A DNA stretch of 43,895 bases from UHGV virus genome UHGV-0356621, one strand, 5' to 3'. The DNA is from a virus. Below, piece by piece: positions 167 to 26,869 of this stretch. The translations under genes were made by a program, and so were the position numbers. The notes under the pieces are model-generated. The model saw only the letters and a program-made list of their open reading frames with translations, did no database searches and was not told the DNA's origin. Numbering within the stretch: the stretch's first letter is position 1; every line of letters starts with the position of its first letter.

Positions 167-667
167 CGTTTTTGATACGCTTTGTCGTGATTCACCGGTT
201 GCCATCCGCTCCCCCATTTCCCGCCATTGCTCATCCGTGAACTTAGGCCTGCGACCACCAACTCGCCATTTTGCCCTGGCTACGGCCAGCCCTGCTAAGG
301 TACGTTCGCTATTAAGATCAGATTCATATTGTGCTGCGGAAAGGATGTTACGAAAGTTATAGCGGCCGCTGGCTGTTTTGAGATCCACGCCATCGGTAAT
401 ACTGCGGAAGTTGATACCCTTTTCCTGTAGCTGCTGGAACATCAACAGCGCATGCAGAACGTTGCGGCCTATCCTGTCCAGCTTCCAGACCACCAGTTCA
501 TCCCCCGACTGCATAGTGGCGATCAGCCGTTTTAGAACCGGCCGATTCGATTTCCGCCCGCTGGCATGCTCTTCAAAAATTTTCTCACAACCCGCTGACT
601 TGAGCGCCGTTAGTTGCAATTCAGTGTCCTGGTGGTTTGTTGATACTCGGGCATAACCGTAAATCAT
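119..667 (-). CDS. Serine recombinase, Hin/Gin/Pin/Cin-type DNA invertase
   Basis: MIYGYARVSTNHQ... carries the catalytic Ser motif, then VVWKLDRIGR, and a C-terminal HTH ending GLSTLYKK, as in Pin/Gin. The length of 182 aa is typical. AGGAG lies 4 nt upstream of this ATG; the track ORF (to 766) has a non-homologous N-terminal extension. Confidence 0.9.
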   Translation of the reverse strand: MIYGYARVSTNHQDTELQLTALKSAGCEKIFEEHASGRKSNRPVLKRLIATMQSGDELVVWKLDRIGRNVLHALLMFQQLQEKGINFRSITDGVDLKTASGRYNFRNILSAAQYESDLNSERTLAGLAVARAKWRVGGRRPKFTDEQWREMGERMATGESRQSVSKTYGVGLSTLYKKFPAS

Positions 668-671
668 GGGA

Positions 672-698
672 TTTCTCCTGTTATGAAAACAGGAGAAA
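672..698 (-). promoter_or_regulatory. Perfect 11-bp inverted repeat (TTTCTCCTGTT-atgaa-AACAGGAGAAA) covering the invertase Shine-Dalgarno
   Basis: Read directly. In the mRNA sense the 3' arm AACAGGAGAAA contains the SD and ends 4 nt before the ATG at 667. Confidence 0.7.
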
Positions 699-846
699 CG
701 GCGAAGCATCACCAGATTTTTGATGGTTATAAAAAAGGTTCGTTTAGAACTGGAGGGATGGTGCATGACTATGAAAGACGATGCTATTTAGATAGATAAA
801 CGGCGGGTCTCACTGGTGTGCGGTGATACAGCAAAACCCGTATAGA

Positions 847-1287
847 CTACACCTCTGGAGGAACAGGCCAGTTAACATTCTCGGGGTCGATTGTTACATC
901 AGCCTCTTTAACCTCATTTTTATAGGCCAGCCACGCTGACAACTTCGCTCTGTTGGCGTCGCTGATTTCACCGAGCATCAACTCCGTTCTCCAGTCGAGC
1001 ATAGTGGCGTCAGCTTGATTCAGTAAATGTTGGCGATAGCGCTCTGCTGCGGCCAGTAACTCATCGTAGGTTGGTGTCGGGATATCAACCCATACTGGCT
1101 TCGAATTTTTCGCCCCCAATATTTTCCCAGCAGGAGGAGTTACGCGCCAATATTTCTCGGCATCTTCATTTGAGACCTCAGTTGCATCTTCTGGCCATGT
1201 ATTTTCTGAATATGTGCCATCAGATTTCCATGAAGCAGGAATGAATGAGAGTAATGAGGGAACAAAATATGCGACTGTTTTTGTCAT
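847..1287 (-). CDS. Tail fibre assembly protein (Tfa/U-like chaperone)
   Basis: It lies immediately downstream of a tail fibre gene. The C-terminal half (YDELLAAAERYRQHLLNQADATMLDWRTELMLGEISDANRAKLSAWLAYKNEVKE) is the typical Tfa motif pattern. Confidence 0.8.
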   Translation of the reverse strand: MTKTVAYFVPSLLSFIPASWKSDGTYSENTWPEDATEVSNEDAEKYWRVTPPAGKILGAKNSKPVWVDIPTPTYDELLAAAERYRQHLLNQADATMLDWRTELMLGEISDANRAKLSAWLAYKNEVKEADVTIDPENVNWPVPPEV

Positions 1288-1288
1288 A

Positions 1289-2449
1289 TCAGAATCCTAA
1301 TGCAAACCAGCGGAAACCGTCTGCTGGAGTTGCTGTTGATACCCATGAGAAGAAGAAATTGACATCAGAGTTAGAAATGGCACCAACCTGAGAAAAAACA
1401 TCAATACCGGCATTTCCTGACAAATTGGACGGGGTTGCCATTGCCATCAAGGAGAAATTCGGGAACGGTGTTGGGAAAATAACGTTTTGCACCCCTTCTG
1501 GTATAGACTTTAAAACAGCGCCCCATTGAATTATTAACCCACCAGAAACGTCTGGAATGCGGACAAAATCATTCGCTGCAAAATTTCTCTTTGGAAGAAA
1601 TGATTTCAGGCCGCTGGCATCTACCATTTTTTTAGCCGTACCCGACTGAATATCAGCGGCGGTAGCGATCGGCCCCAATCCCAAACCTGAAAGTACTCCC
1701 GCTGCATCACTCCTGCCGAGTATTGTTCTTGCGAATGCTGTCAGATCGGTTATTGCTACAGTATCTTCGCCAGTGAAGTAAGGTAATTTATTTGCTGAAC
1801 TTGCCAGGGCTGCAATGGCAGTTAAAGTTGCATCCAGTGGTTGTTTCCCATTCAGCAATTCAGTTATGCCAAGGTAGTTCACGATATCAGCAATTTTTTC
1901 TGCCGCCACGACTGTGCGCCCAACGGTTGTAATTCCAGAAAGTCTGGCTGTGTTGCTGTCGTCAAAAAAAGGAAAACTGTTCCCAATGCCATTCAGCGTT
2001 GCGAGCTGCTTTAAACCAAGGTATGTGAGAATGTCAGCAATAGTATTTTTCCCGATAATGTCACGGCCAACAGAAGTTAAATCAGTCTGCGCTGCTGTAT
2101 CATTTCCAGTGAAATATGGGAGTTTATTTGCACCTGTTGCGAGCCCAGCTAATGCCGTCAGCGTGGCGTCAAGCGCCTGGAAATCCTTACCGAACGCGGC
2201 GGACATTTTGGTGATAAACCCGTTCAGGTCACCATCATCAAGCACGTCCAGCCCGCTTTTGTTAGCGGTGTACTGCGCCAACGCTGCCGCTATAAAGCTG
2301 GCCTGTCGAATGGCTTTGTTTACCTGCGCACTGGATGCCTTTCCTGCCATGAATCCAGAGAGTAGAGCCGGAAGTGTTTCCCAGTCAGCCTGGGCTGTCA
2401 CGTTAGCGTTAGGATCAATCGCAAACGCTTTAAAGTTATTTGTTGCCAT
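1289..2449 (-). CDS. Tail fibre protein 2 (side fibre)
   Basis: The N-terminus MATNNFKAFAIDPNANVTAQADWE... is common in enterobacterial prophage fibres. There are three internal repeats of the DATLTAxAxLAxxANKLPYFTGxDT...TDLT motif. AAGGAA SD is present. Confidence 0.8.
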   Translation of the reverse strand: MATNNFKAFAIDPNANVTAQADWETLPALLSGFMAGKASSAQVNKAIRQASFIAAALAQYTANKSGLDVLDDGDLNGFITKMSAAFGKDFQALDATLTALAGLATGANKLPYFTGNDTAAQTDLTSVGRDIIGKNTIADILTYLGLKQLATLNGIGNSFPFFDDSNTARLSGITTVGRTVVAAEKIADIVNYLGITELLNGKQPLDATLTAIAALASSANKLPYFTGEDTVAITDLTAFARTILGRSDAAGVLSGLGLGPIATAADIQSGTAKKMVDASGLKSFLPKRNFAANDFVRIPDVSGGLIIQWGAVLKSIPEGVQNVIFPTPFPNFSLMAMATPSNLSGNAGIDVFSQVGAISNSDVNFFFSWVSTATPADGFRWFALGF

Positions 2450-2458
2450 TTTTATTCC

Positions 2459-2761
2459 TTAAGCCCAGACGCGAGCCAGTGTTTTCGGTGCAACCACAAA
2501 GTCGTTCAGCCCGGATAAATCGAGCGAGTCATTCATGACCCGCAAATTGGCGTGATAGCCGGGTTCGGTGGTGTACTTGATAACTTCGTTTTCCTCGCCG
2601 GAATTGATAACTTCAGCAGGAACAGTGATAACGCCGACGATATCCAGGCTGATATCAGGGTGATAAAAACCACCCTGTCCCTCATCATCCACAAACCCCG
2701 CCGCGATTAATTGCGTGCGCATTTGGTTGGCGTCATTAAAGCGCAGATATAAGTCTCTCAT
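2459..2761 (-). CDS. Hypothetical protein between the two fibre genes (possible fibre accessory/chaperone)
   Basis: 100-aa ORF whose start overlaps the upstream fibre stop by 1 nt (shared base 2761). No recognisable motif; the call rests on position only. Confidence 0.45.
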   Translation of the reverse strand: MRDLYLRFNDANQMRTQLIAAGFVDDEGQGGFYHPDISLDIVGVITVPAEVINSGEENEVIKYTTEPGYHANLRVMNDSLDLSGLNDFVVAPKTLARVWA

Positions 2762-4269
2762 TAGCGGAGTCCATTGATTTGGTTGGGAGTTAGCAGGCGG
2801 TGCCAGATACGGAAATTGCGAATGTGGTAAACAAACCTTACGGATGTAGTTTGGTTTATATTCCCTATATACGAAACGGATTGCGTGATGTCATTAGGAG
2901 TAACGCTATGAGAGTTTGAATTACCGTTGTAGTAGTTTGATATCCTGCCCCTTTCCGTTGTATGAACGAATACTCCGCTACTACCCTGGAGGCAAGGTAT
3001 ACTAATGTCCGTTGAACTTCGATACGATTTTACTGTGTTGTCGTTAACCCACCTGCAAACAATATCATTGCTTGGGCCTTGTACCTTAACAACTTCAATA
3101 TATCCATCGGAAGCCTGTAAATATTTAGGGAAAAATTCAAATGCCAAAGTTCTGTTGAATAGCGTTGCAAGAGTAGGGTATCCACAGTTTTCTTTCGGGA
3201 TTTGCCAGTAATCAGCAGCTCTTGTAACTGTAGTTGCGGCCGTCGGGATATAGGATGTTGGGAATGGGCTATCTTCTAATTGTGCGCCCCAGGCGTATAA
3301 ACCAGATACGCCATCTCCGGTATAGATTGTTGACACACCATTTGCTAATTGAATGCGAATAACTGTTCTCTGACTCGCTCCGGCTGTGAAAACCATCCAG
3401 ACACGGTATATGCCATTTCCGAAATCATCAAAACCACGATCAACAAATTGAGCACCATGGCCAGGCCCAACCCAGGCACCTGCAGCCGGGTCAAAGAAAA
3501 CGCCTGATGTACTACCAGAAGCAACACGCAGATATAAATTACGCGGGCTGGTGTGAGCTTTTACGAAAACCGAATAACAATAAGTTGTTCCTGCTGTTAA
3601 AATAATATTGCGGTCTTGTGCATAGTGTTCAATGGTAGGGGAGGTACTCTCAATTATAAGCGCCATCGTTTTATCGCCGCGAGGCGAGTCGCCGCTATTA
3701 TTCGTTGTGGTAACGTCTTTCCCTGCGTCCCACTGTTCTGAATATGTATACAGGTTCGTAATCTGATGCTCAATTAAAAGCCCCTCTTTCTCAAAGCGCG
3801 GCTCATTAATTGCCGCCGTCTTCAGCACACCAGATTTATCGATGTACGTCGCCGTCGTTGAGCGAGTGAACGTCATCGACTTAGTGGGCAGAGGGTAACT
3901 TGTGCCGGCCACTGTGATTGTGTCCGCCGGCGCGATCCCGGCCAGCAGGCGAAGGTCATCGGACAGCGGCGCCCAGACATCCGGGAACGGCGCATCAACG
4001 TAAACGGTGGCGGCAGCCGAGTTCGCAGCATCAGCTGCGCTCTGGGCTGCTGCAGCGGCTGAACTGGCTGCAGCCTGCGCCGACTGGCTCGCTGATTGCC
4101 CTATCGCAACTACGTCGGCTTGTAGTCCGGCAAGCGTTTTAGCTTTTTTGCCCGTTCTGGTCGTAACCTCCTTACTGCTGGAATTTACGACCTCATCCAG
4201 AGTCTGCTGGTTATCAGCAAAGTCACGCAAATCGCTGGATGGTACTGAGTTATTTGTATTGTAAGGCAT
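2761..4269 (-). CDS. Tail fibre / receptor-binding protein 1
   Basis: It follows the baseplate genes. The N-terminal Ala/Ser/Gln-rich shaft is SASQSAQAAASSAAAAAQSAADAANSAAA. The C-terminal two thirds (about 2761-3700) are visibly more AT-rich than the flanks and rich in beta-strand-like sequence. Confidence 0.7.
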   Translation of the reverse strand: MPYNTNNSVPSSDLRDFADNQQTLDEVVNSSSKEVTTRTGKKAKTLAGLQADVVAIGQSASQSAQAAASSAAAAAQSAADAANSAAATVYVDAPFPDVWAPLSDDLRLLAGIAPADTITVAGTSYPLPTKSMTFTRSTTATYIDKSGVLKTAAINEPRFEKEGLLIEHQITNLYTYSEQWDAGKDVTTTNNSGDSPRGDKTMALIIESTSPTIEHYAQDRNIILTAGTTYCYSVFVKAHTSPRNLYLRVASGSTSGVFFDPAAGAWVGPGHGAQFVDRGFDDFGNGIYRVWMVFTAGASQRTVIRIQLANGVSTIYTGDGVSGLYAWGAQLEDSPFPTSYIPTAATTVTRAADYWQIPKENCGYPTLATLFNRTLAFEFFPKYLQASDGYIEVVKVQGPSNDIVCRWVNDNTVKSYRSSTDISIPCLQGSSGVFVHTTERGRISNYYNGNSNSHSVTPNDITQSVSYIGNINQTTSVRFVYHIRNFRIWHRLLTPNQINGLR

Positions 4270-4297
4270 GGATATTCCTTGAACGATTCACAGGAAA

Positions 4298-5071
4298 TTA
4301 AAACGGCGAATCCCATGCTCCCCGATCGAAACCGGAAACATATTCATCATCGAGGTCGAAACCGAAAAACTGATATCCAGCAGATGGCCTGATAATTTCA
4401 CGGATGCGAACGCCAGCGGGCTTAATAGTCAGATAGCCATTTTTTATTACCCACACCATTTCATTGCTCAGGTCATCAATCGGATTATTGAAATACTGAG
4501 AGGGTGTGTAATCCGCCGGGAGGTCGATAAACGGCCCGCCATTTATAGCCGAGTCTAAAATAAGCCTGTCTGTTGGATTGATAATCGCGTCAGGGTCAGC
4601 GAGAACCCAGACAGACTCTGTCATGTCCAGGTTATCAATTATCGCCATCCTGATGCCGGAGCCAGCCAGCGCCACATCCAGAATATCCGGTATGCTTTCG
4701 TTGCGGCCGTCCCACTGGTTCATTGCCGCCTTGGCATTAAGCACGACACGATAAGTATCGTCGCTTAGCTGCATCAGGCCTTCATCCGGGTCAAATGGCC
4801 CCTGCCAGTTACCGCGATCCCACCCAAGGCTGTCTGTGTCCCAGGAGAAGTAGACGCCGGTTATCGGCGTAGACACCTGCCTGCTGCGGCCGATCCACTC
4901 CCCCAGGATATCCAGTTGGACACCGATGGCTGTGTCCAGGTCAAAGCTGTCAATCAGCCCACCAGTTGCAATATAGGTATCAGTCAGCGGGCGGGTGATC
5001 AGGTCAATGTGCTGCGGGAAGAGTTGCCGGGTCGCGTGATAGTTTGTGATCAGCTCGGTATATTTGCTCAT
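4298..5071 (-). CDS. Baseplate/tail protein (DUF2612-like, gpI position)
   Basis: It lies after the baseplate J-like gene with a 4-nt overlap. FDLDTAIGVQLDILGEWIGR resembles the DUF2612 family (recalled from memory). Confidence 0.6.
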   Translation of the reverse strand: MSKYTELITNYHATRQLFPQHIDLITRPLTDTYIATGGLIDSFDLDTAIGVQLDILGEWIGRSRQVSTPITGVYFSWDTDSLGWDRGNWQGPFDPDEGLMQLSDDTYRVVLNAKAAMNQWDGRNESIPDILDVALAGSGIRMAIIDNLDMTESVWVLADPDAIINPTDRLILDSAINGGPFIDLPADYTPSQYFNNPIDDLSNEMVWVIKNGYLTIKPAGVRIREIIRPSAGYQFFGFDLDDEYVSGFDRGAWDSPF

Positions 5072-6264
5072 GAGGCGGTCACCTTGATGTTTGCCACATC
5101 GCAGTGCGCCGCCTCATCGAACAGAATGGTGATATTGGCTGCTGCGGTAGTGGAAGCGCTTTTCCCGACCTTCAGAGAGGTGATGTCGTAGAACTTGCTC
5201 TCCCCGCCGCTCATTACGCCCAGGTTAGCCGGAGAGTAAACCCGGCTCAGCAGCACGGGGTCGCCGATGCGCAGCGAGTTTATATATTTCGCCACCTCTG
5301 CCTTAATTCTGTCCGCCGTTGAGGTGGTGTAGCCAGGGTAAGTGGTTAACGTGATATCCACGAAAACCTCTACCACTTTCGGGCGCGAGAATCGTATTTT
5401 CTTGGATTCACCATATCGGCCCACCAGGTTTACGGTTGTCGTGCCGAATGGTGTTGTCCCAACATCCTTTTTACCGGCGATCACCGTGGCGATTTCAGTG
5501 GCATCGCCGCCGTCAACGATGCAGCACATAGAATGCGCTGGCAGACCGTTGGAATCGGTAGTTTCAGAGTCGTTCTCATAACTGCGCAGTCGGGTTACGC
5601 CAGTGACGTTAAGCAGCGCCCCGTCCACACCCTCCATGGTGGTTTGTAATGTCAAGGCAGTACTGCGGGCCTGCCGTTCGCGCAGCTGAGCGTCTGTTTC
5701 GCCACTTTCCCCCACGGTTGCTGCAGCCGGGTTATTCACTGTTCTCCACCCGCGCGTCGGCGAGGCTATACGATTTATGGTGTTAGCCAACGCCACCACC
5801 GGGCCAGAAATAGAGCAGGTGGCGGTAACTGTGATAGACTGGGTTTGCGGGATAATCACGCTGGCAGGCAGGTTCCAAACTGTGCCGTTCGCATCACGCA
5901 CACTGCCAGCGGTGATCTGCGTGCCGACGTCGCCTTCAATCACTACGTCTGCCGTGGAGTTGGTCGCCAGCTTCCTGGTAATGCCGTTGATTTTGACGTT
6001 ACTGGACAGCGCCCGCCCCATGCTCGTACTGGGTGAGAACGAGTTATAGGCAGCGATACTGGTGTTGTTCGCGTCATGGATTCCCAGCGCGTAAATCGCC
6101 AGCATTTGTCCGTCTTTGCTGTCTGGTTCGAGGTAGGCATCACTACCGTAAATCTGCCTGAAATAGCTGGTCAGTGTATCAAGGATTGTCTGGTAATCAG
6201 GCGCACTAATCCCCTGGGCGGTTACCGTTGCCGATAGCCCCAGCGTGTCGAGGTTCAAAGCCAT
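5068..6264 (-). CDS. Baseplate J-like protein
   Basis: 398 aa with a GETDAQLRERQARSTAL motif typical of the gpJ/gp47 family. It lies between the W-like and I-like genes. Confidence 0.75.
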   Translation of the reverse strand: MALNLDTLGLSATVTAQGISAPDYQTILDTLTSYFRQIYGSDAYLEPDSKDGQMLAIYALGIHDANNTSIAAYNSFSPSTSMGRALSSNVKINGITRKLATNSTADVVIEGDVGTQITAGSVRDANGTVWNLPASVIIPQTQSITVTATCSISGPVVALANTINRIASPTRGWRTVNNPAAATVGESGETDAQLRERQARSTALTLQTTMEGVDGALLNVTGVTRLRSYENDSETTDSNGLPAHSMCCIVDGGDATEIATVIAGKKDVGTTPFGTTTVNLVGRYGESKKIRFSRPKVVEVFVDITLTTYPGYTTSTADRIKAEVAKYINSLRIGDPVLLSRVYSPANLGVMSGGESKFYDITSLKVGKSASTTAAANITILFDEAAHCDVANIKVTAS

Positions 6265-6618
6265 TTATGCCTCGCTTGTTACAGTCGTCTGGCCGTAGAT
6301 TGTGTCAATGGAGGAAGTGAAGGTGACGCGACGGCTGGTGCCGTCATAATTGGTATCGAAGGAAAGAATCGACAGAACGCCCGGCGTATCCTGTATGCGT
6401 TCGCGTATAGCCAGGATGTAGACGTCAGATCGCTGTTTACCCAGCACTGATTGAACATATGGCGTGCCTTCCGTCAGATCGAGAAACCACTGACCGCGCC
6501 ACAGTTCGAAACGGGTTTTCACGGCCTGGGCGACACACTCCGGACTGTCGATAAGGAAAGTATCGTCACCCTGCCCGAAAGTGTAATCGCCGTCAGCATC
6601 TTCGCGACGGTATCGCAT
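6265..6618 (-). CDS. Small baseplate protein (gpW/Mu gp46 position)
   Basis: 117 aa, directly abutting the J-like gene. The call rests on position and size. Confidence 0.55.
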   Translation of the reverse strand: MRYRREDADGDYTFGQGDDTFLIDSPECVAQAVKTRFELWRGQWFLDLTEGTPYVQSVLGKQRSDVYILAIRERIQDTPGVLSILSFDTNYDGTSRRVTFTSSIDTIYGQTTVTSEA

Positions 6619-6621
6619 AGA

Positions 6622-7260
6622 TTAACCTCCCAGCGGCTTAGTATTGCTTCCGCCGCTCTCAACGCCGCCATGGGTATGCTTATCCACGATAGAACCGTCC
6701 ACCAGCTGCAAGCGACCGTCAGACAGTATTTTGAGCCCGTTAAGGTTGAATCCGCCCGGCGCTGTGCCATTTATTTCCCCGCTGGATGGGTTAAGGCTTA
6801 ATTTTGTACCGCCGTCATCGCTGCGCAGCTCTACCGAACTGGTACTGATGCCGCTGATTTTCTGCGCTTGCGACTGCGGGCCAACGATGGCGAACGCATC
6901 AGATAAGTCATGCTGGCGCGGGTCGACGGTCTCCTGAACGCCGCCGCTCTGCCACCAGAAATCGATGCAACGGTCGGCAAAGATCAGCAGGCACTCGTCG
7001 CCTTCTTTAACCGGAAAGGTCAACGTGCAACCGCCGCCGCGCGGGAAGATGACCGGCACATCCACCAGCGGTTTTAATTCGGTGGAGCCATCGCCAACGA
7101 CACCGCGAAGCGCCACCTCTACCGTGCAGGTAACAGCGTCAGGATCGAACGACTGAATGATGCCGGGCATCGCTACGCGCATCTGGGTAGACACCGAATC
7201 GGCAATGGCCTGCGCGGTCTGCTGCTCGCCGCCGATCTGTGATTGAGTTGGAATTGGCAT
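6622..7260 (-). CDS. Baseplate spike / assembly protein V-like (Mu gp45-like)
   Basis: 212 aa with an N-terminal OB-like region (VTCTVEVALRG...GDECLLIFADRCID) and a C-terminal Gly-rich tip, as in gpV-type spikes. Confidence 0.65.
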   Translation of the reverse strand: MPIPTQSQIGGEQQTAQAIADSVSTQMRVAMPGIIQSFDPDAVTCTVEVALRGVVGDGSTELKPLVDVPVIFPRGGGCTLTFPVKEGDECLLIFADRCIDFWWQSGGVQETVDPRQHDLSDAFAIVGPQSQAQKISGISTSSVELRSDDGGTKLSLNPSSGEINGTAPGGFNLNGLKILSDGRLQLVDGSIVDKHTHGGVESGGSNTKPLGG

Positions 7261-7269
7261 AAAAACCCC

Positions 7270-7296
7270 ATAAAAAAACCCGCTCGGTGGCGGGTT
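7270..7296 (-). terminator. Rho-independent terminator after the lipoprotein moron
   Basis: On the minus strand: AACCCGC-caccga-GCGGGTT followed by TTTTTTT. It lies 30 nt after the moron stop and 10 nt before the gpV-like start. Confidence 0.8.
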
Positions 7297-7326
7297 ATAA
7301 TTTTCTAAAAATATTAAAGAGCCATT

Positions 7327-8049
7327 TTAAAGTAATCCCATTTTTCTGGCAGCTTCAATATTGTAAACATCTCCACGACCACTACACGGGGCAGCTAATG
7401 TAACCATTTCCACATACCCTTTATTACCTTTCTGTTGGCATATGCTCGCATGCATTTTCGCAAGCCTTGCCGCATGCTCGAAATCTATATAACTATCAAA
7501 CGAAGCTTCACTTAATGCGGTATATTTTGTTTTATCAGGTATGCTATTTATTTTTAACATGCCAGAAAAGTCATTCAACGCTTTAGTTAAATTAGATATG
7601 CAAATATTTTTATAATTAGCATTATCATATGCTGAGGCTCTTTTGCATTCTTCAGCGTATCCAGTGATAGCGATTTGTACACGTCTCATTGTTAAATGAT
7701 AACCACCGACTTTCACATAAACGTTATCCATATTCTGTGAATTTGGATAACGAGTAACAAAGCCCAAATTGTTAAGCGCTCTACTTAGTTCGTTTCCACT
7801 TGAACTTGAAGAATCAACATCTAACTTTTCCACTTCTACTTCAGGGTGTGAAGCTTCGAAATTTTCAGCTTCTTCTTTTTGTTTTTTTAACCGATTTTTT
7901 TGATTTTCATCAACTTGCTTTTCATACTCAACTCTTTCTTTCTCTTTTTGTGCCAGCCATTCCCTTTGTGCATTAACACCATTAGGGTCCCAACTGCATG
8001 AAGTCAAAAACATTGAAAAGAAAATGGGAGTTATTGCAAGCATATTCAT
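7327..8049 (-). CDS. Predicted lipoprotein, AT-rich moron inside the baseplate operon
   Basis: The N-terminus MNMLAITPIFFSMFLTSC has a hydrophobic signal plus an L-T-S-C lipobox. A Lys/Glu coiled-coil stretch follows, then a Cys-containing C-terminal domain. The gene is markedly AT-rich compared with both neighbours and has its own terminator. The track start at 8052 is TTG; the ATG at 8049 is used here. Confidence 0.75.
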   Translation of the reverse strand: MNMLAITPIFFSMFLTSCSWDPNGVNAQREWLAQKEKERVEYEKQVDENQKNRLKKQKEEAENFEASHPEVEVEKLDVDSSSSSGNELSRALNNLGFVTRYPNSQNMDNVYVKVGGYHLTMRRVQIAITGYAEECKRASAYDNANYKNICISNLTKALNDFSGMLKINSIPDKTKYTALSEASFDSYIDFEHAARLAKMHASICQQKGNKGYVEMVTLAAPCSGRGDVYNIEAARKMGLL

Positions 8050-8056
8050 CAAAAAT

Positions 8057-9121
8057 TCATCCTGCGGTTTTGTTTATGGACGCTCCTGATTGCAAATCTC
8101 GCGCCCCCCTCGCAAAGCACATCAAATCCATGTACCACGCCTGACCTCTTGTGTCGCCAGTATAGTCGATAGCTTTGACGATATAAACGCCATCTGTAGC
8201 AATGCTGGCAGCCTGTGACGTCGTACCTGTCAGTACGCGGTTGCCGTTCTCTTCCGTCTCGGTGATACGCCCGGGCGACTGCGCGATTTCGCTATTGCCG
8301 AGTGCGGCGCGGTACACTGAAGCCTGATCGAGCTGGATAAGGCCATTAATGCGGATGTTGGGGTTTATCAAACACCGCACGTTTACGCCGCCGCCCATCG
8401 TCTGTTGCGGCATACCGATCAGGCCAGTATCGGCATTCAGCACGATGGCTTCGTGAATATATTTATCCTCCGGCACCATCTGGACCTGACCATCCACCAG
8501 CTGCCATGTCGCTTTGCACTGCGCAGCAATATTATCCATCACGTTACGGGTGGATGAGTAAATCGCGCGGCCACGAGGAAACACGGTATCAGGAAAGTCA
8601 CCGGTTATGCCCTGCGTTACGCCGAACGCGTTGAAATCCTGCATCGTCGCCCGGTGCAGATCCGCAACGGTATAACCGGCTGCAAGCGTGGTGATGGTAG
8701 TCGCATAGAGGAACGCTTCGTGGTCACCAATCGCCTGAATCAACACCCAGGAGTCGGTAATGTTATCCTTCCCGGTGACGGTGAAGCGAATATCACCGTC
8801 AAATATCAGGCCGTAGTTCTGACCGTTCACCTGCCCTACCTGGTCTGGTGAAATCTTCCGGGCGACACCAACCTGGCTCGCATCAACATCCGGCGCAATA
8901 CCGTCATACCCGGCAATGATGCGAATTTTTGCAAACTCCTGCCCCAGTATCTTGTTCGTGGTATCGGTCGAAAGGTTGTAAATTTTCACGTTCGCCACTC
9001 GCGGCCAGCGTGTATCTGCCCACTCGATCTGGAACGTGACCTTAAAATCAGACAGGGAAACGCCCTGCCCGTTCTGGTCCAACAGTTGCAGCTCAAAATG
9101 GCGCATCCAGTTAAGAGACAT
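8057..9121 (-). CDS. Baseplate hub / late-control-D-like tail protein
   Basis: 354 aa, lying between the tape-measure-proximal small genes and the spike gene. The call rests on position and size. Confidence 0.55.
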   Translation of the reverse strand: MSLNWMRHFELQLLDQNGQGVSLSDFKVTFQIEWADTRWPRVANVKIYNLSTDTTNKILGQEFAKIRIIAGYDGIAPDVDASQVGVARKISPDQVGQVNGQNYGLIFDGDIRFTVTGKDNITDSWVLIQAIGDHEAFLYATTITTLAAGYTVADLHRATMQDFNAFGVTQGITGDFPDTVFPRGRAIYSSTRNVMDNIAAQCKATWQLVDGQVQMVPEDKYIHEAIVLNADTGLIGMPQQTMGGGVNVRCLINPNIRINGLIQLDQASVYRAALGNSEIAQSPGRITETEENGNRVLTGTTSQAASIATDGVYIVKAIDYTGDTRGQAWYMDLMCFARGARDLQSGASINKTAG

Positions 9122-9123
9122 TT

Positions 9124-9429
9124 CTACTCCTGTACGAAAATGAGGTGGCTGTATGTGCCGAGGTTGGTTTTGGTGGGCTCGTCTGGTGCGCCCTTATCGG
9201 TCGCCACCACCAGCGCGCCATCAATGCCAAGCTGTGGATATTGTCGTAAAAGGTTTACGCCGGTCAGTAGAGGTACGCCAGAGAGAAGCGCGGCACCGCC
9301 GCTATCCATCACGTCCATAATCCAGCCAGCCGCATCACGCCAGATGATCCTGAGTGTATACGTGGTATTGCCCAGCAAAACTCGGAACCGCTGATTGTCA
9401 GGAGAAAGCGGTATTTCGTTAAACTGCAT
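9124..9429 (-). CDS. Small tail protein
   Basis: 101-aa ORF tightly packed in the tail operon; no motif recognised. Confidence 0.4.
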   Translation of the reverse strand: MQFNEIPLSPDNQRFRVLLGNTTYTLRIIWRDAAGWIMDVMDSGGAALLSGVPLLTGVNLLRQYPQLGIDGALVVATDKGAPDEPTKTNLGTYSHLIFVQE

Positions 9430-9430
9430 A

Positions 9431-10033
9431 TCATCCCCCGAATGCTGATGTAACGCTTCCGCCCAGCTGGCTCAGCAAGGATTCGTTTGGCGGTGTAGTG
9501 GATTTCATCCCGGAATTCTGCACCGCCGATGTGCTGACGCCATCCTGCATATCTGATTTATCTGCAACGCTAACGCTCTGCGTCTGCGACATGATCACTT
9601 CACGCAGGGTAAGCGTGCAGTTCAGCACGTTCTCGCTGGTTTTATCCGTTGTCACCTCGATGGCTCGCACCAGCATATTGCTGTAAACCCGCTTTCCGGT
9701 CACTACATCGAACGGCACCCGAGAGGACTGGAGATCCAGTAGTTGCTGATAGGTCTCTTTGGGGCTAAGTCCGGCGCTGAGGCCGATTGAAGATGTATCA
9801 ATGAAGTCCAGCAACGAACCGCCACCAGCGAAGCCGCATTCCATTGTGACTTCGCTGGGACGCTTATACGCATGATCGGCAATGAAACCCGATGCGCTAT
9901 TCGTTGTCGGCTTCTCCACCGGGTGCTCAGTAATTTCAAGCGCATCAGAATGCTTTTCGGAAACGACTACACTGGGGATGAGTATGCCAATTCGCCGGGA
10001 TTGCTGGCGAAAAATCGCTGATAAAATATCCAT
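9431..10033 (-). CDS. Tail/baseplate protein
   Basis: 200-aa ORF whose start shares base 10033 with the tape measure stop; no motif recognised. Confidence 0.4.
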   Translation of the reverse strand: MDILSAIFRQQSRRIGILIPSVVVSEKHSDALEITEHPVEKPTTNSASGFIADHAYKRPSEVTMECGFAGGGSLLDFIDTSSIGLSAGLSPKETYQQLLDLQSSRVPFDVVTGKRVYSNMLVRAIEVTTDKTSENVLNCTLTLREVIMSQTQSVSVADKSDMQDGVSTSAVQNSGMKSTTPPNESLLSQLGGSVTSAFGG

Positions 10034-12048
10034 TAGCTATTTCTCGTGATGAGTTGCTGAGTTAGAACAGAGTTGACACTCCCTTGGCGTTCAGCTGAGA
10101 GACGAGCCGCTTCACGTGGGTCGGAAACACCGTGGATGTTAATGTTCGTTTCCTGCTGAATCACCGGGGCGCTGGTGGGCATATTGCTCATCACTTTCGG
10201 AATGTAGTTGCGCGTTTCCTGCGGCATTAGCCCCATGCCATAGCGCTGAACGTTGCCGATCCCCCAGTTATATGATGCCAGTGCTTTGCTAAGGTCTCCG
10301 CCGTTCTGCCGCAACAGCTGGCTGAGGTACTTAGCTGCGGCCTGAGCTGACTTTTGCGGGTCGAATACATCGTTTCCGCGAAGGCCCATGTCTCGCGCCG
10401 TGCCATCCATGAACTGGAACAGACCTTTAGCGCCAGCGCCTGAAACGGCGAACTGATTACCGCCAGATTCCGTTATGGCCACACTGCGCAATAACCCCTC
10501 CGGAAGCCGGTAGAGCTGTTCCAGGTTGGTAAGCATCGGCTGCATCCATCCCAGCAGTTCAGAGCCTGCTTTGGTTGGCTGTGGCCGCTTAACTGACTGG
10601 CCGAGCTGTTCAGGCTCATCATCACCGAACCAGCCGCGCACCGTTCGGCCCACGCTGCGAGGATCGAATCCCCAGTGCTCTTTAATCCAGTCGGCTGTAC
10701 CGTTGGCGCTGTCTGTTACCATCGGCATCGCTGACGGATTTTCGCTGCCCTGATTTAGCAGCTGTTTGCCTATACTAGCGGCCTGCGCCCAGTTGCCATC
10801 TTTTATGGCATTCAGCAAATCAGCGATCATGTTCAGCATCTTGCCGAACTCACCCATTTGCGAAATGAAGTTGCTAAAATCCCACTTTAGGGACCATGAC
10901 TTGGGGTCAATACCGAGCAACTTAGCCAGCGCTTTTGTCAGGTCCGTAACAGTCTTTTTCAGGTCACCAATCATTTTGACGGCCTGATCAATTTCAGTCT
11001 TCCATTTCCCCCAGTCAATCAGGCTTTTGCCACCTTCTTTCCACGTCTGGTAATCATCCAAGAGCAGACCAAGTGCAATAATAAGCGTCGTTATCATGCC
11101 CAAGGGTGATGACATGAAAGCGGTATTTAGCAGCCGCCATGCAACCAACAGCCCACTGAACAATGCGATAAGCTGCTGCGTGGCTGGGTTCAGCTTTTTG
11201 AACCAGGCGATCACACCCTCAACAGCTTGCCCAGTTCGCCATAACACGCGGGTAATCGCGTCACCTGCCCAGAGAATTCCTTTGATGATCTTCGTGATGA
11301 CCGCTTCAATCTTCGGCCAGTTGTCGAGTATCTGCCTGCGGAAGTTATCAATACTGCCAGCAAGGCCACCAGCTAGGTTAGAGCCAATCTTGTCTTTCGC
11401 CTGTCCAAGCGTCATCGTCAGATTACGCATGGAGGTCATGAAAATATTGGACTGTTTAGCCGCTGACTCAGCATTAAAACCAATACGCTTTGCCGTCAAC
11501 GCGTACTCAGAACTGAGCTGCCCCATCCCTCTGCGCATCGCCATCAGCGTGTTTTCATCGATGCCAAGCATCTGCGCGTATTGCTTCGCGCGGTAATACG
11601 GCATGTTGTTGAGCTTTTGCCCAACGCCAGTAAAGATGGCCGCAGTATCACGCATCTTTCCGCTGGCATCTCGGGTCTGGACACCCAGACGGTTCAGGAA
11701 GCCTTCCGCCCCCGGATTGCTACGCATGAAACCGGCCAGCCCTTCGAGGGAGGACATGGCCGACTCGGCGCTGGCACCGGTTTGCGACGCGGCATAGCCC
11801 AGCGCTTTGATGCCCTGGACGCTGGCCCCCGTCCGTTGGGATGCCCAGTAAATTTTATCCAGACCATTCGCGATCTGGGTGGTAAATCCGACAATGCTCA
11901 GCGCTGCGCCTTCCACCACCGCGCCGACCTTCAGAACGTTTGCGGTAACGCCTTTCAGCACGGCTTCAAACTTATTAGCGCCAGCCTGATCGATATCGAA
12001 TCCCAGCGAAACAAGGAAGTCTTTAATCGTATCTGCGTTACCGCTCAT
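10033..12048 (-). CDS. Tape measure protein with C-terminal lytic transglycosylase (SLT) domain
   Basis: 671 aa with central hydrophobic/helical segments. The C-terminal LRSVAITESGGNQFAVSGAGAKGLFQFMDGTARDMGL...AAAKYL is the SLT catalytic-Glu motif. It follows the chaperone pair. Confidence 0.85.
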   Translation of the reverse strand: MSGNADTIKDFLVSLGFDIDQAGANKFEAVLKGVTANVLKVGAVVEGAALSIVGFTTQIANGLDKIYWASQRTGASVQGIKALGYAASQTGASAESAMSSLEGLAGFMRSNPGAEGFLNRLGVQTRDASGKMRDTAAIFTGVGQKLNNMPYYRAKQYAQMLGIDENTLMAMRRGMGQLSSEYALTAKRIGFNAESAAKQSNIFMTSMRNLTMTLGQAKDKIGSNLAGGLAGSIDNFRRQILDNWPKIEAVITKIIKGILWAGDAITRVLWRTGQAVEGVIAWFKKLNPATQQLIALFSGLLVAWRLLNTAFMSSPLGMITTLIIALGLLLDDYQTWKEGGKSLIDWGKWKTEIDQAVKMIGDLKKTVTDLTKALAKLLGIDPKSWSLKWDFSNFISQMGEFGKMLNMIADLLNAIKDGNWAQAASIGKQLLNQGSENPSAMPMVTDSANGTADWIKEHWGFDPRSVGRTVRGWFGDDEPEQLGQSVKRPQPTKAGSELLGWMQPMLTNLEQLYRLPEGLLRSVAITESGGNQFAVSGAGAKGLFQFMDGTARDMGLRGNDVFDPQKSAQAAAKYLSQLLRQNGGDLSKALASYNWGIGNVQRYGMGLMPQETRNYIPKVMSNMPTSAPVIQQETNINIHGVSDPREAARLSAERQGSVNSVLTQQLITRNS

Positions 12049-12651
12049 TGGCCGCTCTCCATTTATCTACCCGGGCGTCGTTATCCTCGCGCATGTCGAG
12101 GTAGTCATTGAGAAGCGCGATACGGCAGAGGTCTACCGCACCGCTGTTAAGGTCTTTCTGGTCAATATGGAAGGCAAGCGCCGGACGAAGAATAAAGTCT
12201 TCACCGCCCGGCAGGCTGTTGAAGGTTATTCCGCTGGCGGGGTGGGCGTCTCGCTGGTAGGGAGTCCTTGCAAAAAATTTCCCAGCGAGTCGGCGACCAC
12301 CCGCGCCACCAGTTGCAGCATGGTAAGCAGGTCGATATCGTCAAACGCCATTTCGCCATGCTGGCAGACCGGCACCCAGCCTTTCATGTGCTCGCGTGAA
12401 ACAACGGAAAGGCAGGGGAACAGGATAGCGTCAACGTCGCCATCGCTCAGATCGGACACAGCATTGGCAATCTTTGGCAGGATGGTAGCCATCGCGCCTT
12501 CGGTGTCTTTGCTGCTGATCTTCTCCTGAACGCTCCGGAAGTCAGAAACCATCCCGGCCAGCACCGGCAACAGCTTTCGGGACACCTTCAGCTGTTCGAA
12601 AACGCTGAGCTTTGCGGTGCGATATTTCACGCCTTTAATTTCGAATTCCAT
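12038..12651 (-). CDS. Tail assembly chaperone, -1 frameshift fusion product (GT-like)
   Basis: After A_AAT_TTT (12274-12280) the -1 frame stays open for about 80 codons (KFFARTPYQRDAHPASGITFNSLPGGEDFILRPALAFHIDQKDLNSGAVDLCRIALLNDYLDMREDNDARVDKWRAANER). It stops at 12038, just inside the tape measure gene. I checked this codon by codon. Confidence 0.7.
12226..12651 (-). CDS. Tail assembly chaperone (G-like, zero-frame product)
   Basis: 141-aa acidic protein between the tube and tape measure genes. It carries a slippery site near its 3' end. Confidence 0.7.
   Translation of the reverse strand: MEFEIKGVKYRTAKLSVFEQLKVSRKLLPVLAGMVSDFRSVQEKISSKDTEGAMATILPKIANAVSDLSDGDVDAILFPCLSVVSREHMKGWVPVCQHGEMAFDDIDLLTMLQLVARVVADSLGNFLQGLPTSETPTPPAE
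12274..12280 (-). promoter_or_regulatory. Programmed -1 ribosomal frameshift heptamer A_AAT_TTT
   Basis: Minus-strand sequence is ctg gga aat ttt ttg. The heptamer sits in the correct X_XXY_YYZ phase of the chaperone frame. Confidence 0.7.
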
Positions 12652-12654
12652 GCG

Positions 12655-13095
12655 TTAAAACTCCCCGAGCAGCTGGTCAATCTTGCCGCAGTCGAATACC
12701 CAGGCGACGGTTCCGCCCTCTTTAGCGTTATTGAAATCAGGCTGTTTCTGGAATGCACACGAACGCGCAGTAGAAATATCACCCGATGCCGTGTTGCGAA
12801 TAACGATCACGTTATTGCCCCAGGTTGCAGAGGACTGGCTCTGCGCGTTGTACGCCAGCGACAGCTTCTTGTTTACCGGTGATGTTTTCAGCAGGGTGAC
12901 CGTGATTGTTCCGCTTTTCCCGGCGTGCAGGCTATGCATCACCTCGCCGCCAGCTCCGATCGTCATGGTGTTTTTGTTCTCGGTCATGGTGACCGTGATG
13001 CCCTCTTCCGAGTTGGCAGAGCCGTAACCGAGATCGATAACCCCAGTTGGTCCGGTCATGGACGCGGTGACATCTATAAAGCTATAGGTTGACAT
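12655..13095 (-). CDS. Tail tube protein (DUF3277-like)
   Basis: 146 aa, directly after the sheath gene and before the chaperone. The family assignment is from memory. Confidence 0.65.
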   Translation of the reverse strand: MSTYSFIDVTASMTGPTGVIDLGYGSANSEEGITVTMTENKNTMTIGAGGEVMHSLHAGKSGTITVTLLKTSPVNKKLSLAYNAQSQSSATWGNNVIVIRNTASGDISTARSCAFQKQPDFNNAKEGGTVAWVFDCGKIDQLLGEF

Positions 13096-13105
13096 TCATT
13101 GCTCC

Positions 13106-14596
13106 TTAGCGAACCACATTGATGAGGACATCAGCGAAGTGAATGGCGCCCGCCAGTTTCGCCGCCACCTGAATCACCGGAGCTTTACGCGCTTCGCGAT
13201 CTGCCTGCGCCTGAGAGTTGAGGGGATTCGCGTAAACGTAATAACCCTTTGTCAGCGTGTCGCCCGGAGCTAACTGGCCGATACTTCCGCCGTTCCATAA
13301 CCCCGGAGCAACCAGCCCGTTATTCACTGACTGATCCATCGACTGCTCGATGTTCGTCACCAGGCGTGTCACACCGGCTTCGGTTTGTGGGATTTTGGTG
13401 GTGGAGGTGTAAAGCAGATTCCAGAGGTTGTTCTGGACATAGTTCTGTAGCCAGTCGAGACCGTGGCGCTCATCGAAGAAATCACCGTTGCACATCACGC
13501 CTTCCTGGATGATGGCGGTGTCGTTGGTGTAGCGTACGAACACGTTGCAGTTTTTGGCCTTCAGCGTGTCTGCCTGCTGCGCGGTGATCGTCTCTGCAGC
13601 GATGCCGGGCTCCTGCTTGAACTTCAGGGTAATGGTGGTGTTATTGCCCAGGAAGTTCACGGTAAATGCCCGGCCAAATGCTGACGCCGCGGCATAAGGC
13701 ACCTGGCTGTACTGACAGAAGGTGCGGCCGTAGCCCGCCGCTTTCAGCTTGTAGGCAATATCCGTGGTACTGGTTGCATCCAGAACCGCCGATGCGGAAG
13801 TGGTTACACCATACACGCGGGAGTCACTTGCAGAGCCAATCAGCGCGGAAACATCGATATGGTTCTGATCTGTCATCGCCGTGTCGGCAATTACCAGGCC
13901 ATACCAGTCGGCGGAGTAGTTCAGGGCGGTAGTGACCGACGGGAGAACTGAAGAGGACGCCGCCTGGCCGTTTACCACCGTGGGGTTGTGTGCTGAATCA
14001 ATGCCCAGTAGTGGAGCCAGGTCGGTGCCGGTTCCCGCAGCCGTCGGGATCCCGATAGCAGACGCCGCCCCGGTGGTGGTCGAGGTGATAACGAACTGGC
14101 TGGAGCCAGCCACCCAGGACACCGTAGCGCCGGTCATCTTCGCTGTAATCGCCGTCGCGACGCCAGCAAGGTCGGTAACCGCCGAGAGGTTAATCGCGGT
14201 GAGCGTTACAACTGTGCCGTTAATCGAAAGCTTCAGAGCGCCAGCTGTCACCGCTGTGAAGTTCGACAGCGCCTTTTCAGCCGTGGAGAGGACAGCGCCG
14301 GTCAACTTGCCTGATGAGGCAGAGACAGAGGTGCGGGCCAGTTTGCCGATGTACAGATCGCGAGGCTGCGGCGACTGCTGGAAGTAAAGATTAGCCGCTT
14401 TGTACTCTTCAGCACTGGTGCCAAAGTCCGTAGCGACGCTTTCAATGCTCTGATAGAGGCGCATCACCTCTGGTGCGGTGATCACGCTGGACGTGCCAAG
14501 CACCAGCAGCGCCCCAAAGTTGCGCCCGGCCGCCGCACGAACGGCGAGCGACACCTGCACGTTCACGACGCGCTGGACAGATAAGCCGTTAGGCAT
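13106..14596 (-). CDS. Tail sheath protein (DUF3383-like)
   Basis: 496 aa, upstream of the tube gene. The Ala/Thr/Ser-rich central insertion and conserved C-terminal region are typical of this sheath family (from memory). Confidence 0.65.
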
Positions 14597-14599
14597 GGT

Positions 14600-15163
14600 T
14601 TATTCTCCAAAAAAGGTGACTGGCGCTTCCACCAGCGATTTAATGCCGTACTCGCGCACAACCTTCCGGCGCAGGCGCACCGTCATGTCGTAGCGGCGAA
14701 CCCATTGCTGGTTGATAAGTTCGGGGAAAGGGGTCAGACCGGTATAGTCGCCCAGGGACAAACCAAGCGCGTTCAGCTCAGCATTGTTTTGCGGGACAGA
14801 TATGCCATCACGAAAACGGGAAGCATAAGACATACCAGCCGGGCCATAGAACGACGCCATGCACTCGAACGTTTCATGCCGCCAGAGCTGAGCGCCCTCA
14901 TCGGTCTGCCTGGTGAATGCAGGACTGTTATCAATGGGCCACCCGGTAACGCCGAACGCACACCAGTTCGTTTCAACTGACGGTAGTGATGGCTGTTCTT
15001 TCTGCCAGCGCGGGCGAACCATCCCAGCCGGCAAGCCGGAAACGTTGCGCATCCACTGGCTTAACAGCCTGTCGAGCGCTTCGTCATAATCCGGATCGCC
15101 GCTGGTAGGTGTCAGCCAGCCGCGCTGTGTGCTGGTGTTATTGCTCAACGGGAGTACCCCCAT
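14600..15163 (-). CDS. Neck/tail-terminator region protein
   Basis: ORF in the head-tail joining block. Start taken at the internal ATG (MGVLPLSNN...); the track start at 15205 is also possible. Confidence 0.45.
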   Translation of the reverse strand: MGVLPLSNNTSTQRGWLTPTSGDPDYDEALDRLLSQWMRNVSGLPAGMVRPRWQKEQPSLPSVETNWCAFGVTGWPIDNSPAFTRQTDEGAQLWRHETFECMASFYGPAGMSYASRFRDGISVPQNNAELNALGLSLGDYTGLTPFPELINQQWVRRYDMTVRLRRKVVREYGIKSLVEAPVTFFGE

Positions 15164-16839: not shown

Positions 16840-16854
16840 TTTCAGTTTCCTTCT

Positions 16855-16870
16855 GGCCCCTTTCGGGGCC
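16855..16870 (-). other. GC hairpin GGCCCC-gaaa-GGGGCC directly after the major capsid gene
   Basis: 6-bp GC stem with a GAAA tetraloop, 11 nt after the capsid stop. There is no U-tract, so it is more likely an mRNA-stabilising or attenuating hairpin than a full terminator. Confidence 0.6.
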
Positions 16871-16880
16871 GTTCTGGTTA

Positions 16881-17822: not shown

Positions 17823-17833
17823 TCGTCTGTTCC

Positions 17834-18337: not shown

Positions 18338-18341
18338 TGGA

Positions 18342-19574: not shown

Positions 19575-19588
19575 GGTTTACCTGCGAT

Positions 19589-26371: not shown

Positions 26372-26869
26372 TTAAATTGCAAGCACGTTGTGTGATTTAT
26401 TTGCAATTTTCCTCACATTTTCGCGATCGTTAAACGCATTTTGAAGCGGTTGGTATAAACAGAACAATGAAGCATTGATTATTTGCTTCACCTCTCTACG
26501 GATTGTCGAGATGCTTGGGTGTTTGTACTGATTGCCGCCACGCGTCTTCATAAGGCGAGGCTTACTTACTGCATGCTGCCATGATGCAATTCGGATCTCG
26601 CTGGAGTTGCAGACGTAGTAGGCGAAGATAACCCGCCAGGCATTTTCATCCACATTCTTCAGATAGTGACGAATGACAGCATCAATGAGCATCCCGTCAT
26701 CATCACTACATACCGGTCGTGATGCTTGCTGGGGCTCGACGGTAGCCATGAATCTGGCAATCATGTTGATCATCGCTTTATCAATCTTGCCGGTCTGGCA
26801 CCATGCGCCCCACAACTGGAGCCACTGGTCTACCCATTGATGCTGGTCGTTGGTTAATTCCAGTTTCAT
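26372..26869 (-). CDS. Q: Late-gene antiterminator Q
   Basis: 165 aa. WLQLWGAWCQTGK...CSDDDGMLIDAVIRHYLK...FAYYV matches the Phage_antitermQ family pattern (from memory). It is the last gene before the terminator, tRNA and lysis genes. Confidence 0.75.
   Translation of the reverse strand: MKLELTNDQHQWVDQWLQLWGAWCQTGKIDKAMINMIARFMATVEPQQASRPVCSDDDGMLIDAVIRHYLKNVDENAWRVIFAYYVCNSSEIRIASWQHAVSKPRLMKTRGGNQYKHPSISTIRREVKQIINASLFCLYQPLQNAFNDRENVRKIANKSHNVLAI

Follow-up and report, generated by a model that had tools for sequence, protein, structure and literature searches.

Accessory envelope proteins encoded in phage tail operons are already known, among them HK97 gp15, Cor, Llp and Lom. The Llp gene of T5 adjoins the gene for the receptor-binding protein. 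T4 Spackle (Sp) and P1 Sim are periplasmic exclusion proteins with signal peptides from contractile-tailed phages: Sp inhibits the gp5 lysozyme of the incoming tail tip, and Sim acts against DNA entry. Ltp of Streptococcus thermophilus prophage TP-J34 acts on the tape measure protein. HK97 gp15, the product of a tail-operon moron, mediates superinfection exclusion from the inner membrane; it blocks DNA entry, and its specificity is set by the infecting tail (PMC3594210). T5 Llp is a lipoprotein of the inner leaflet of the outer membrane (PMC9586334; bioRxiv 10.64898/2026.03.26.714494). Ltp is described (PMC3952083) as a prophage lipoprotein located outside the cytoplasmic membrane that causes superinfection exclusion by blocking DNA injection. 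Here we analyze a gene for a predicted lipoprotein in the virus genome UHGV-0356621. The window, that is, the whole stretch of 43,895 nucleotides (nt) under study, carries this open reading frame (ORF) of 240 amino acids (aa) on the minus strand between the genes for the baseplate hub and the central spike (Table 1). In related phages this position is a conserved slot for exported proteins, and we tentatively propose that the lipoprotein acts in superinfection exclusion.

An exported-protein slot after the hub gene

To place the gene among its relatives, 80 species-representative loci were fetched by hub alignment, 72 of which hold both hub and spike. The junction was occupied in 64 of the 72 (~90%), with hub-spike gaps of 348-2818 nt, and in 62 of these 64 the first gene encoded an exported protein. 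The first gene was of the STY1065 type (phrog_3443) with a signal peptide in 54 loci, including two chimeras and one 51-aa fragment. It had a lipoprotein-family head in 6 loci, encoded another small exported protein in 2 and carried no export signal in 2. In 62 of the occupied loci it started between -7 and +24 nt relative to the hub stop, the exceptions being a nonexported ORF at +40 in locus L037 and the 51-aa STY1065-type fragment. In the eight loci with an empty junction, hub and spike were adjacent or overlapping (gap of ≤58 nt), and their hubs were all ≤49% identical to the window hub. These counts do not support what the earlier note on this DNA implied, namely that the gene is inserted into an otherwise uninterrupted hub-spike junction. 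We conclude that the lipoprotein gene is an alternative occupant of a conserved exported-protein position. That this position beside the hub is a conserved slot and not a random insertion site is new.

Citrobacter phage Omnitron, as well as prophages of 51 among 5426 complete E. coli genomes, matches the flanks of the lipoprotein gene at ~94% identity. The gene itself was present in only one of the 51 genomes with this hub/spike module, which is also the only one of the 5426, so it is absent from most close relatives. The slot of E. coli AF20 contains an STY1065/STY2022-type gene and two hypothetical genes, that of E. coli ECONIH5 the same type of gene with Phd/Doc, that of E. coli PEC422 with DUF4236 and that of Omnitron with a second signal-peptide protein. 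More distant phages likewise have cargo at the hub-spike junction. The relatives of the window phage are SEN34, Mulock, yong1 and Omnitron, and the phage is a SEN34-like (Brunovirus-type) temperate myovirus in which the lipoprotein family is the rarer, interchangeable replacement of the STY1065 type. E. coli vB_EcoM-689R2 is a further example with this tail type. The type III effector gene sopE is present in SEN34-like prophages of Salmonella Paratyphi B (PMC11632088). An ST64B/sseK3 analogy was considered and dropped, since the window is not ST64B-like.

In SEN34 and in Hafnia phage yong1, the first slot gene shows a signal peptide after start correction. The deposited starts of yong1 gp67 and SEN34 gene 20 lie too far downstream, and the signal peptides are thereby lost. 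When read from the upstream starts, yong1 gp67 becomes a secreted protein of 158 aa that is a distant relative of the lipoprotein-family head, and SEN34_20 an STY1065-type protein of 113 aa.

The STY1065/STY2022 family (NCBIfam; phrog_3443) resembles the lipoprotein in its position, -7 to +24 nt after the hub stop; like the lipoprotein, it is exported, contains Cys and has a lower GC content than the flanking genes. It differs in size (~95 aa mature) and in having an ordinary signal peptide, whereas the lipoprotein has a lipobox; it is also far more common (54 of 72 loci versus 6 for the lipoprotein family). The window lipoprotein did not match phrog_3443 and showed no detectable sequence similarity to the STY1065 type. 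Conversely, a profile built from seven STY1065-type sequences matched STY1065-type proteins and two chimeras in the survey, but none of the six proteins with a lipoprotein-family head. It is position and export that the two families have in common, and not sequence.

The two chimeras, from Enterobacter bugandensis (L031, 296 aa) and Phytobacter ursingii (L045, 288 aa), consist of a lipobox, the N-domain found in long forms of the lipoprotein family and a C-terminal STY1065/phrog_3443 domain. Because they join the N-domain of one family to the domain of the other, the heads of the two slot families are exchangeable modules, which is also a new observation. Furthermore, Serratia aquatilis (L066) has five tandem STY1065-type paralogues after the hub; no spike gene was found in the 4.5 kb fetched downstream. 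An expansion to five paralogues is typical of immunity or exclusion genes, and interchangeable heads together with this expansion suggest diversifying specificity. Among the literature matches listed, there was no paper that names STY1065 or STY2022. The conserved, modular exported-protein slot appears to be undescribed so far.

Genes further along the slot, at its later positions, are those for Phd/Doc, a YafO toxin pair, an Mrr-type nuclease with a membrane anchor, a T5orf172/MUG113 protein, a P22-type antirepressor and DUF4236. The Phd/Doc, YafO, Mrr-type and T5orf172 genes mark the slot as a site for defense-type cargo. The last ~14 hub codons change with the type of cargo (hub 3'-end alignment of window positions 8057-8100 with L001-L023), and the hub 3' end RDLQSGASINKTAG accompanies the lipoprotein in the window, in E. 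coli M172-1 and in Serratia. This dependence on the cargo places the cassette's left recombination boundary within the hub coding sequence.

The close or moderately distant homologues of the lipoprotein whose position was looked up, those in Serratia, Pantoea, Citrobacter koseri and Cronobacter and one long form, all lie directly after a hub of the same tail-module type, and there are two distant exceptions. In L024 and L025, a 341-aa long form with barely detectable similarity (17% identity) is located directly before the hub and after the baseplate plug gene, and is followed by a hairpin and a T-run; this is a low-GC relative (~0.43) in which hub and spike overlap. The second exception, the very distant long-form relative P0087 on a metagenome scaffold (L027), lies outside any tail operon, next to a TumE/HVO_A0114 toxin-antitoxin pair and within an island that carries integrase and DUF927/Toprim primase genes and is itself inserted among phage head genes. 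In addition, Shimwellia has a lipoprotein-family gene, a partial copy at a contig end that is outside the 72 loci.

The lipoprotein and its family

The lipoprotein ORF extends from an ATG at 8049, or alternatively from an in-frame TTG at 8052, to a TAA at 7327-7329. It has a GC content of 0.357 and a third-position GC content (GC3) of 0.26, compared to 0.54 and 0.63 for the hub, 0.58 and 0.66 for the spike and an overall GC content of 0.526 for the window. It is the lowest-GC stretch of the window and the only one of 723 nt below 0.42 GC (z = -3.9). The homologues have GC contents of 0.33-0.43, versus 0.43-0.56 in their own hub genes. The ATG follows the hub stop after 7 nt, and the gene is spaced closely to the hub gene, as for translational coupling. 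Composition, lipobox and flank families agree with the view of the earlier note that a compositionally foreign gene for an exported lipoprotein, strikingly AT-rich relative to both flanking baseplate genes, lies between hub and spike.

The N terminus of the lipoprotein reads MNMLAITPIFFSMFLTSC. Residues 4-15 are hydrophobic and are followed by L15-T16-S17-C18, which fits the lipobox [LVI][ASTVI][GAS]C. Among 30 aligned homologues, Cys18 was invariant and L15 nearly so, and Cys18 is the predicted lipidated N terminus of a mature protein of ~222 aa. According to the sorting rule of the Lol pathway, Ser at position +2 predicts outer-membrane sorting, and by this rule the lipoprotein is predicted to be sorted to the outer membrane. 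An AlphaFold2 model built on the 30 homologues had a mean predicted local distance difference test (pLDDT) score of 88.7. It comprises a long helix rich in Lys, Glu and Gln (residues 25-67), predicted to be a spacer of ~6 nm between lipid anchor and head, and an alpha/beta head that spans residues 84-236.

In the 30-sequence alignment, C135, C150, C204 and C222 were invariant and the five head motifs listed in Table 1 invariant or nearly so. Of these, C135 and C150 alone stay unchanged throughout the wider superfamily; C204 and C222 are invariant in the closer subfamily only. The conserved head cysteines fit an oxidizing compartment. What the earlier note had observed in the sequence was confirmed throughout, including the hydrophobic signal ending in the lipobox L-T-S-C and the Cys-containing C-terminal domain; the stretch noted as a Lys/Glu coiled coil is, in the model, a continuous Lys/Glu-rich helix, either a coiled coil or a single helix.

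A word-indexed search of 5.8 billion proteins yielded 54 homologous clusters, all from Enterobacterales (E. coli, Enterobacter, Citrobacter, Salmonella, Serratia, Pantoea and Cronobacter) and all named "hypothetical." The family is small: an exhaustive profile search among 1.84 billion representative proteins yielded only 36. Long forms of 330-380 aa have an extra helical N-domain between lipobox and spacer. Compared with the 86%-identical allele of E. coli M172-1, the window lipoprotein showed a ratio of nonsynonymous to synonymous substitution rates (dN/dS) of 0.09, so the gene is functional and under purifying selection. In the same comparison, dS was 0.73 for the lipoprotein and 0.27 for the adjacent hub, pointing to cassette exchange and not to simple codescent.

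No family for the lipoprotein was found in Pfam, PHROG, NCBIfam or PADLOC, which returned sub-threshold noise alone. Matches to Cas6f/Csy4, BamD and Slp in these scans were rejected as sub-threshold and as reflecting the signal peptide and the helices. A Pfam scan of 24 diverse family members at E values up to 10 revealed no shared family and no LprI/DUF1311 signal. A sequence profile search of the PDB gave signal-peptide and charged-helix matches and nothing else, no fold match was obtained in the PDB or BFVD, and tblastn found no match among INPHARED phages and PLSDB plasmids. Since these sequence and fold tests were negative, the lipoprotein belongs outside the Cor, Llp, gp15, Bor, spanin and STY1065 families. 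This agrees with the earlier view that it is not obviously related to the known small exclusion lipoproteins, for no Cor or Llp sequence family or fold match was found. Judged by these searches, the uncharacterized lipoprotein family without a known sequence or fold relative is a new element.

The spike gene varies as well. The window spike has 212 aa and those of Omnitron and M172-1 have 246 aa, diverging from it after approximately residue 150 (window positions 6622-7260 compared with L001 2682-3422 and L002 1211-1951), with 67% overall identity for M172-1. Because of this divergence, the C terminus of the spike is mosaic independently of the cargo.

Terminator and late transcription

An intrinsic terminator lies between the lipoprotein gene and the spike gene. 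Its stem AACCCGC/GCGGGTT (7296-7277) is followed by seven T (7278-7272), with an RNAfold energy of -11.2 kcal/mol. It begins 30 nt after the lipoprotein stop and ends 11 nt before the spike start, separated from the spike ATG by A-T-GGGG-TTTTT, and it is the only minus-strand site with an unbroken T-run in positions 1-20000. The strong terminator previously placed at 7270-7296 was correct to within 2 nt. Its assignment as the gene's own terminator was not supported: a hairpin and a T-run preceded the next structural gene in all 17 loci checked by hand and the spike in 58 of the 64 occupied slots, whatever the cargo. Stem changes among the relatives are compensatory (CCCGC/GCGGG, GCCGC/GCGGC, CCAGC/GCTGG, CCCAC/GTGGG and CCCGTC/GACGGG); they were compared by per-sequence folds, and a covariation count was not used because the MAFFT alignment was out of register. 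The six slots without the terminator contain an STY1065-type gene alone. Because the element is conserved before the spike irrespective of cargo, it is the boundary of the slot and not particular to the lipoprotein gene.

The 7 nt between the hub stop and the lipoprotein ATG leave no intergenic room for a promoter. A search upstream of the lipoprotein gene revealed one sigma-70-like match, and the match count equaled the shuffled expectation. This match overlies the conserved hub peptide VYIVKAIDYTGD, and several of the relatives that carry the lipoprotein have TACACT as the -10 element. The suggestion of a self-contained moron with a promoter in 8050-8200 is not supported, the only match being at chance level and in strongly conserved hub coding sequence. 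When the locus is set beside the properties of morons (in the sense of Juhala and Hendrix, as summarized in PMC3594210), a mixed picture emerges. The gene is sporadic, with 1 of 51 E. coli genomes carrying it, while the position is nearly always filled otherwise, and its composition deviates from both flanks (0.357 versus 0.54 and 0.58). An own promoter was not seen, given the 7-nt junction and the chance-level match in the hub, and the canonical terminator behind the gene is a shared element that closes 58 of the 64 occupied slots.

The window phage is lambdoid in its regulatory genes: a gene for a Q-family antiterminator lies upstream on the same strand, and so do the neighboring genes for holin, lysozyme, NinB and NinG. 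The Q-family gene makes read-through of the slot terminator by late transcription plausible, as the earlier note had proposed for a Q-modified polymerase.

Table 1. Positions of features in the window and in survey loci
Feature	Sequence	Position	Strand	Remarks
Lipoprotein ORF	Window	7327..8049	minus	240 aa; coordinates include the stop; fills, as a rare alternative, the exported-protein slot after the hub
Signal peptide and lipobox (residues 1-18)	Window	7996..8049	minus	From sequence; Cys18 codon at 7996-7998
Long helix rich in Lys/Glu/Gln (residues 25-67)	Window	7849..7977	minus	AlphaFold2, pLDDT ~89-94; continuous
Head domain (residues 68-240)	Window	7330..7848	minus	Motifs SHPEV, FVTRYP, CKRxSAY, FEHAARLAKMH, GYVEMVTxAxPC
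Hub-to-lipoprotein junction	Window	8050..8063	minus	Shine-Dalgarno AGGA (8060-8063) within the last hub codons; hub stop TGA (8057-8059); 7-nt spacer
Intrinsic terminator	Window	7272..7296	minus	7-bp GC-rich stem, 6-nt loop, T7; marks where the cargo slot ends downstream
Sigma-70-like match TTTATA-17-TATACT	Window	8159..8187	minus	Within hub coding sequence; candidate slot promoter
Baseplate hub gene (context)	Window	8057..9121	minus	phrog_196, 1.4e-83; PF22759
Central spike gene (context)	Window	6622..7260	minus	PF18352 N-terminal domain, 1.8e-41; PF18946 GpV apex motif; ATG at 7260; Shine-Dalgarno GGGG at 7266-7269
Q-family antiterminator gene (context)	Window	26372..26869	minus	PF06530, 1.4e-21
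Rz-like inner-membrane spanin gene	Window	24887-25273		128 aa; directly downstream of lysozyme gene
Rz1-type out-of-frame lipobox ORF	Window	24733-25080		LLTAC; overlaps Rz-like gene
Chimera, Enterobacter bugandensis	L031	5599-6489		296 aa
Chimera, Phytobacter ursingii	L045	5575-6441		288 aa
Five STY1065-type paralogues, Serratia aquatilis	L066	6075-10071
Long form before the hub	L024	5683-6770		341 aa
Long-form relative P0087	L027	7001-8071		Metagenome scaffold
yong1 gp67	L021	4056-4532		158 aa with upstream start
SEN34 gene 20	L019	4071-4412		113 aa with upstream start
Phd/Doc	L004	2008-2828		Later-slot cargo
YafO pair	L016	6866-7862		Later-slot cargo
Mrr-type nuclease	L046	5980-6828		Later-slot cargo
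T5orf172/MUG113	L041	2830-4059		Later-slot cargo
Antirepressor	L089	7093-8052		Later-slot cargo

Possible functions and comparison with known systems

The anatomy of the slot is clear and experimentally tractable, while the function of the lipoprotein is one that we entirely infer. We tentatively favor, at slightly below an even chance, that it is an envelope superinfection-exclusion protein and not a part of the virion. It would be exported via Sec and Lol to the outer membrane's inner leaflet, from which the lipid anchor and the charged ~43-residue helix (~6 nm) would let a disulfide-stabilized head project into the periplasm near the peptidoglycan. The gene would be transcribed at least within the Q-antiterminated late operon, by polymerases that pass the conserved terminator of the slot. 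Related phages would be kept from productive entry by interception of the incoming tail tip near the peptidoglycan layer, with the spike, the hub or the tape measure with its C-terminal transglycosylase domain (10033-12048) as candidate targets; alternatively, the protein may disable an envelope component that related phages need. In this way lysogens and infected cells would be protected. The linkage to membrane-piercing tail parts, the interchangeable heads and paralogues, the defense-type neighbors in the slot and the precedents of HK97 gp15, T5 Llp, Ltp, T4 Sp and P1 Sim are consistent with such a role.

Several observations weigh against exclusion. The n-region of the window allele (MNMLAITP) has no Lys or Arg before the hydrophobic core, although nearly all homologues have one. 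The lipoprotein showed no similarity to known exclusion proteins or defense models in sequence and fold scans. E. coli AF20 has a spike 97% and a hub 95% identical to those of the window, yet its slot is of the STY1065 type; which type of protein fills the slot is thus independent of the spike and hub alleles, and this weakens the idea of matching to the tail tip. Finally, the tight coupling to the late operon and the lack of a visible promoter agree with a late role in the service of the phage no less than with expression from the prophage.

Such a role would be that of a late-phase helper for the phage's own progeny, in which the lipoprotein, produced along with the tail proteins, masks or inactivates a receptor or an entry route in the dying cell and its debris and so spares released virions; we consider this unlikely. 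It is a role with which T5 Llp is also credited. The tight spacing to the hub inside a Q-dependent late operon agrees with it, as do the six relatives in which the STY1065-type gene, without terminator or extra cargo, is a plain late-operon gene; that 64 of 72 relatives have the slot filled suggests that the phage itself profits. On the other hand, late-only synthesis would leave little time for Lol-dependent export and action, and the AT-rich composition and the terminator conserved in most lineages point to regulation apart from the tail genes. The mechanism overlaps with that of exclusion, and timing is the main difference. Expression from the repressed prophage is instead central to a lysogenic-conversion factor, whose benefit to the host would be unrelated to phages: serum or complement resistance like that of lambda Bor, adhesion, or immunity to toxins acting in the periplasm, for instance colicins, type VI secretion system (T6SS) effectors or tailocins. 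A strongly AT-rich gene that is sporadic among close relatives would suit this explanation, a terminator after it would insulate the downstream tail genes in the lysogen, and the distant homologue P0087 is cargo of an integrase/primase island beside a TumE pair, outside any tail operon. There is, however, no upstream space for a promoter, and the one promoter-like match is at chance level. Moreover, the family is almost exclusively tied to one tail-module hub at identities from 86% down to 17%, which is unexpected for a generic host-fitness gene, and we consider a conversion factor as unlikely as a late-phase helper.

Its place between two baseplate genes could indicate a structural or assembly component of the baseplate, and a lipoprotein of a phage might be its outer-membrane spanin; we regard both as highly improbable. 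The lipoprotein signal peptide exports the protein from the cytoplasm, where tails are assembled, and 50 of the 51 E. coli prophages that share this hub and spike lack the gene. In eight relatives, furthermore, hub and spike directly adjoin or overlap. A baseplate structural protein was rejected on these grounds, and the view of the gene as nonstructural is supported. Identity with the outer-membrane spanin Rz1 was also rejected: the phage has its own Rz/Rz1 pair in the lysis cassette at 24733-25273, ~17 kb away, so the lipoprotein is not the spanin.

Exclusion by the lipoprotein could be part of a wider scheme, which we consider possible but doubtful. The slot after the hub in SEN34-like temperate myoviruses would then be a near-universal modular self-exclusion system in which head swaps change specificity. 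Each slot protein would be assembled from a lipid anchor or signal peptide, in some cases an N-domain, a helical spacer and a head of one of two or more unrelated types (STY1065 or the Cys-rich helical head of the lipoprotein), and would neutralize, in the periplasm, the tail-tip complex (spike, hub or the tape measure with its transglycosylase) of related contractile-tailed phages and possibly of tailocins. Prophages bearing the slot are widespread, occurring in E. coli, Salmonella, Klebsiella, Enterobacter, Serratia, Pantoea, Yersinia and Photorhabdus. If exclusion is correct, they would give clinical Enterobacterales a common level of phage resistance that has gone unannotated, bear on host-range failures in phage therapy and offer a tractable system for the passage of contractile tails across the periplasm. 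If the function differs, the conservation of the slot still marks an unknown step in the life cycle of this phage group.

Among the systems described so far, HK97 gp15 is similar in being encoded by an accessory envelope-protein gene with deviant GC content in the tail operon. It is a small YebO-like inner-membrane protein whose gene has its own promoter and terminator and lies between the tail assembly chaperone and tape measure genes, whereas the window protein is a 240-aa lipoprotein encoded after the hub with no space for a promoter; Pfam and PHROG scans gave no homology between the two. T5 Llp and phi80/N15 Cor are receptor-blocking outer-membrane lipoproteins of ~60-80 aa that target FhuA. 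In comparison, the mature window protein is much larger and has a long helix and a novel head, and its gene adjoins the hub. TP-J34 Ltp is likewise a prophage-encoded lipoprotein tethered outside the cytoplasmic membrane, but it is from a Gram-positive host, is encoded in the lysogeny module, has helix-turn-helix repeat domains and shows no homology. T4 Sp and P1 Sim are not known to be related to it in sequence, to be lipoproteins or to be encoded in a baseplate operon; their type of mechanism is the one proposed here for the window lipoprotein. By analogy with these systems, the lipoprotein probably works like an accessory envelope protein of a tail operon.

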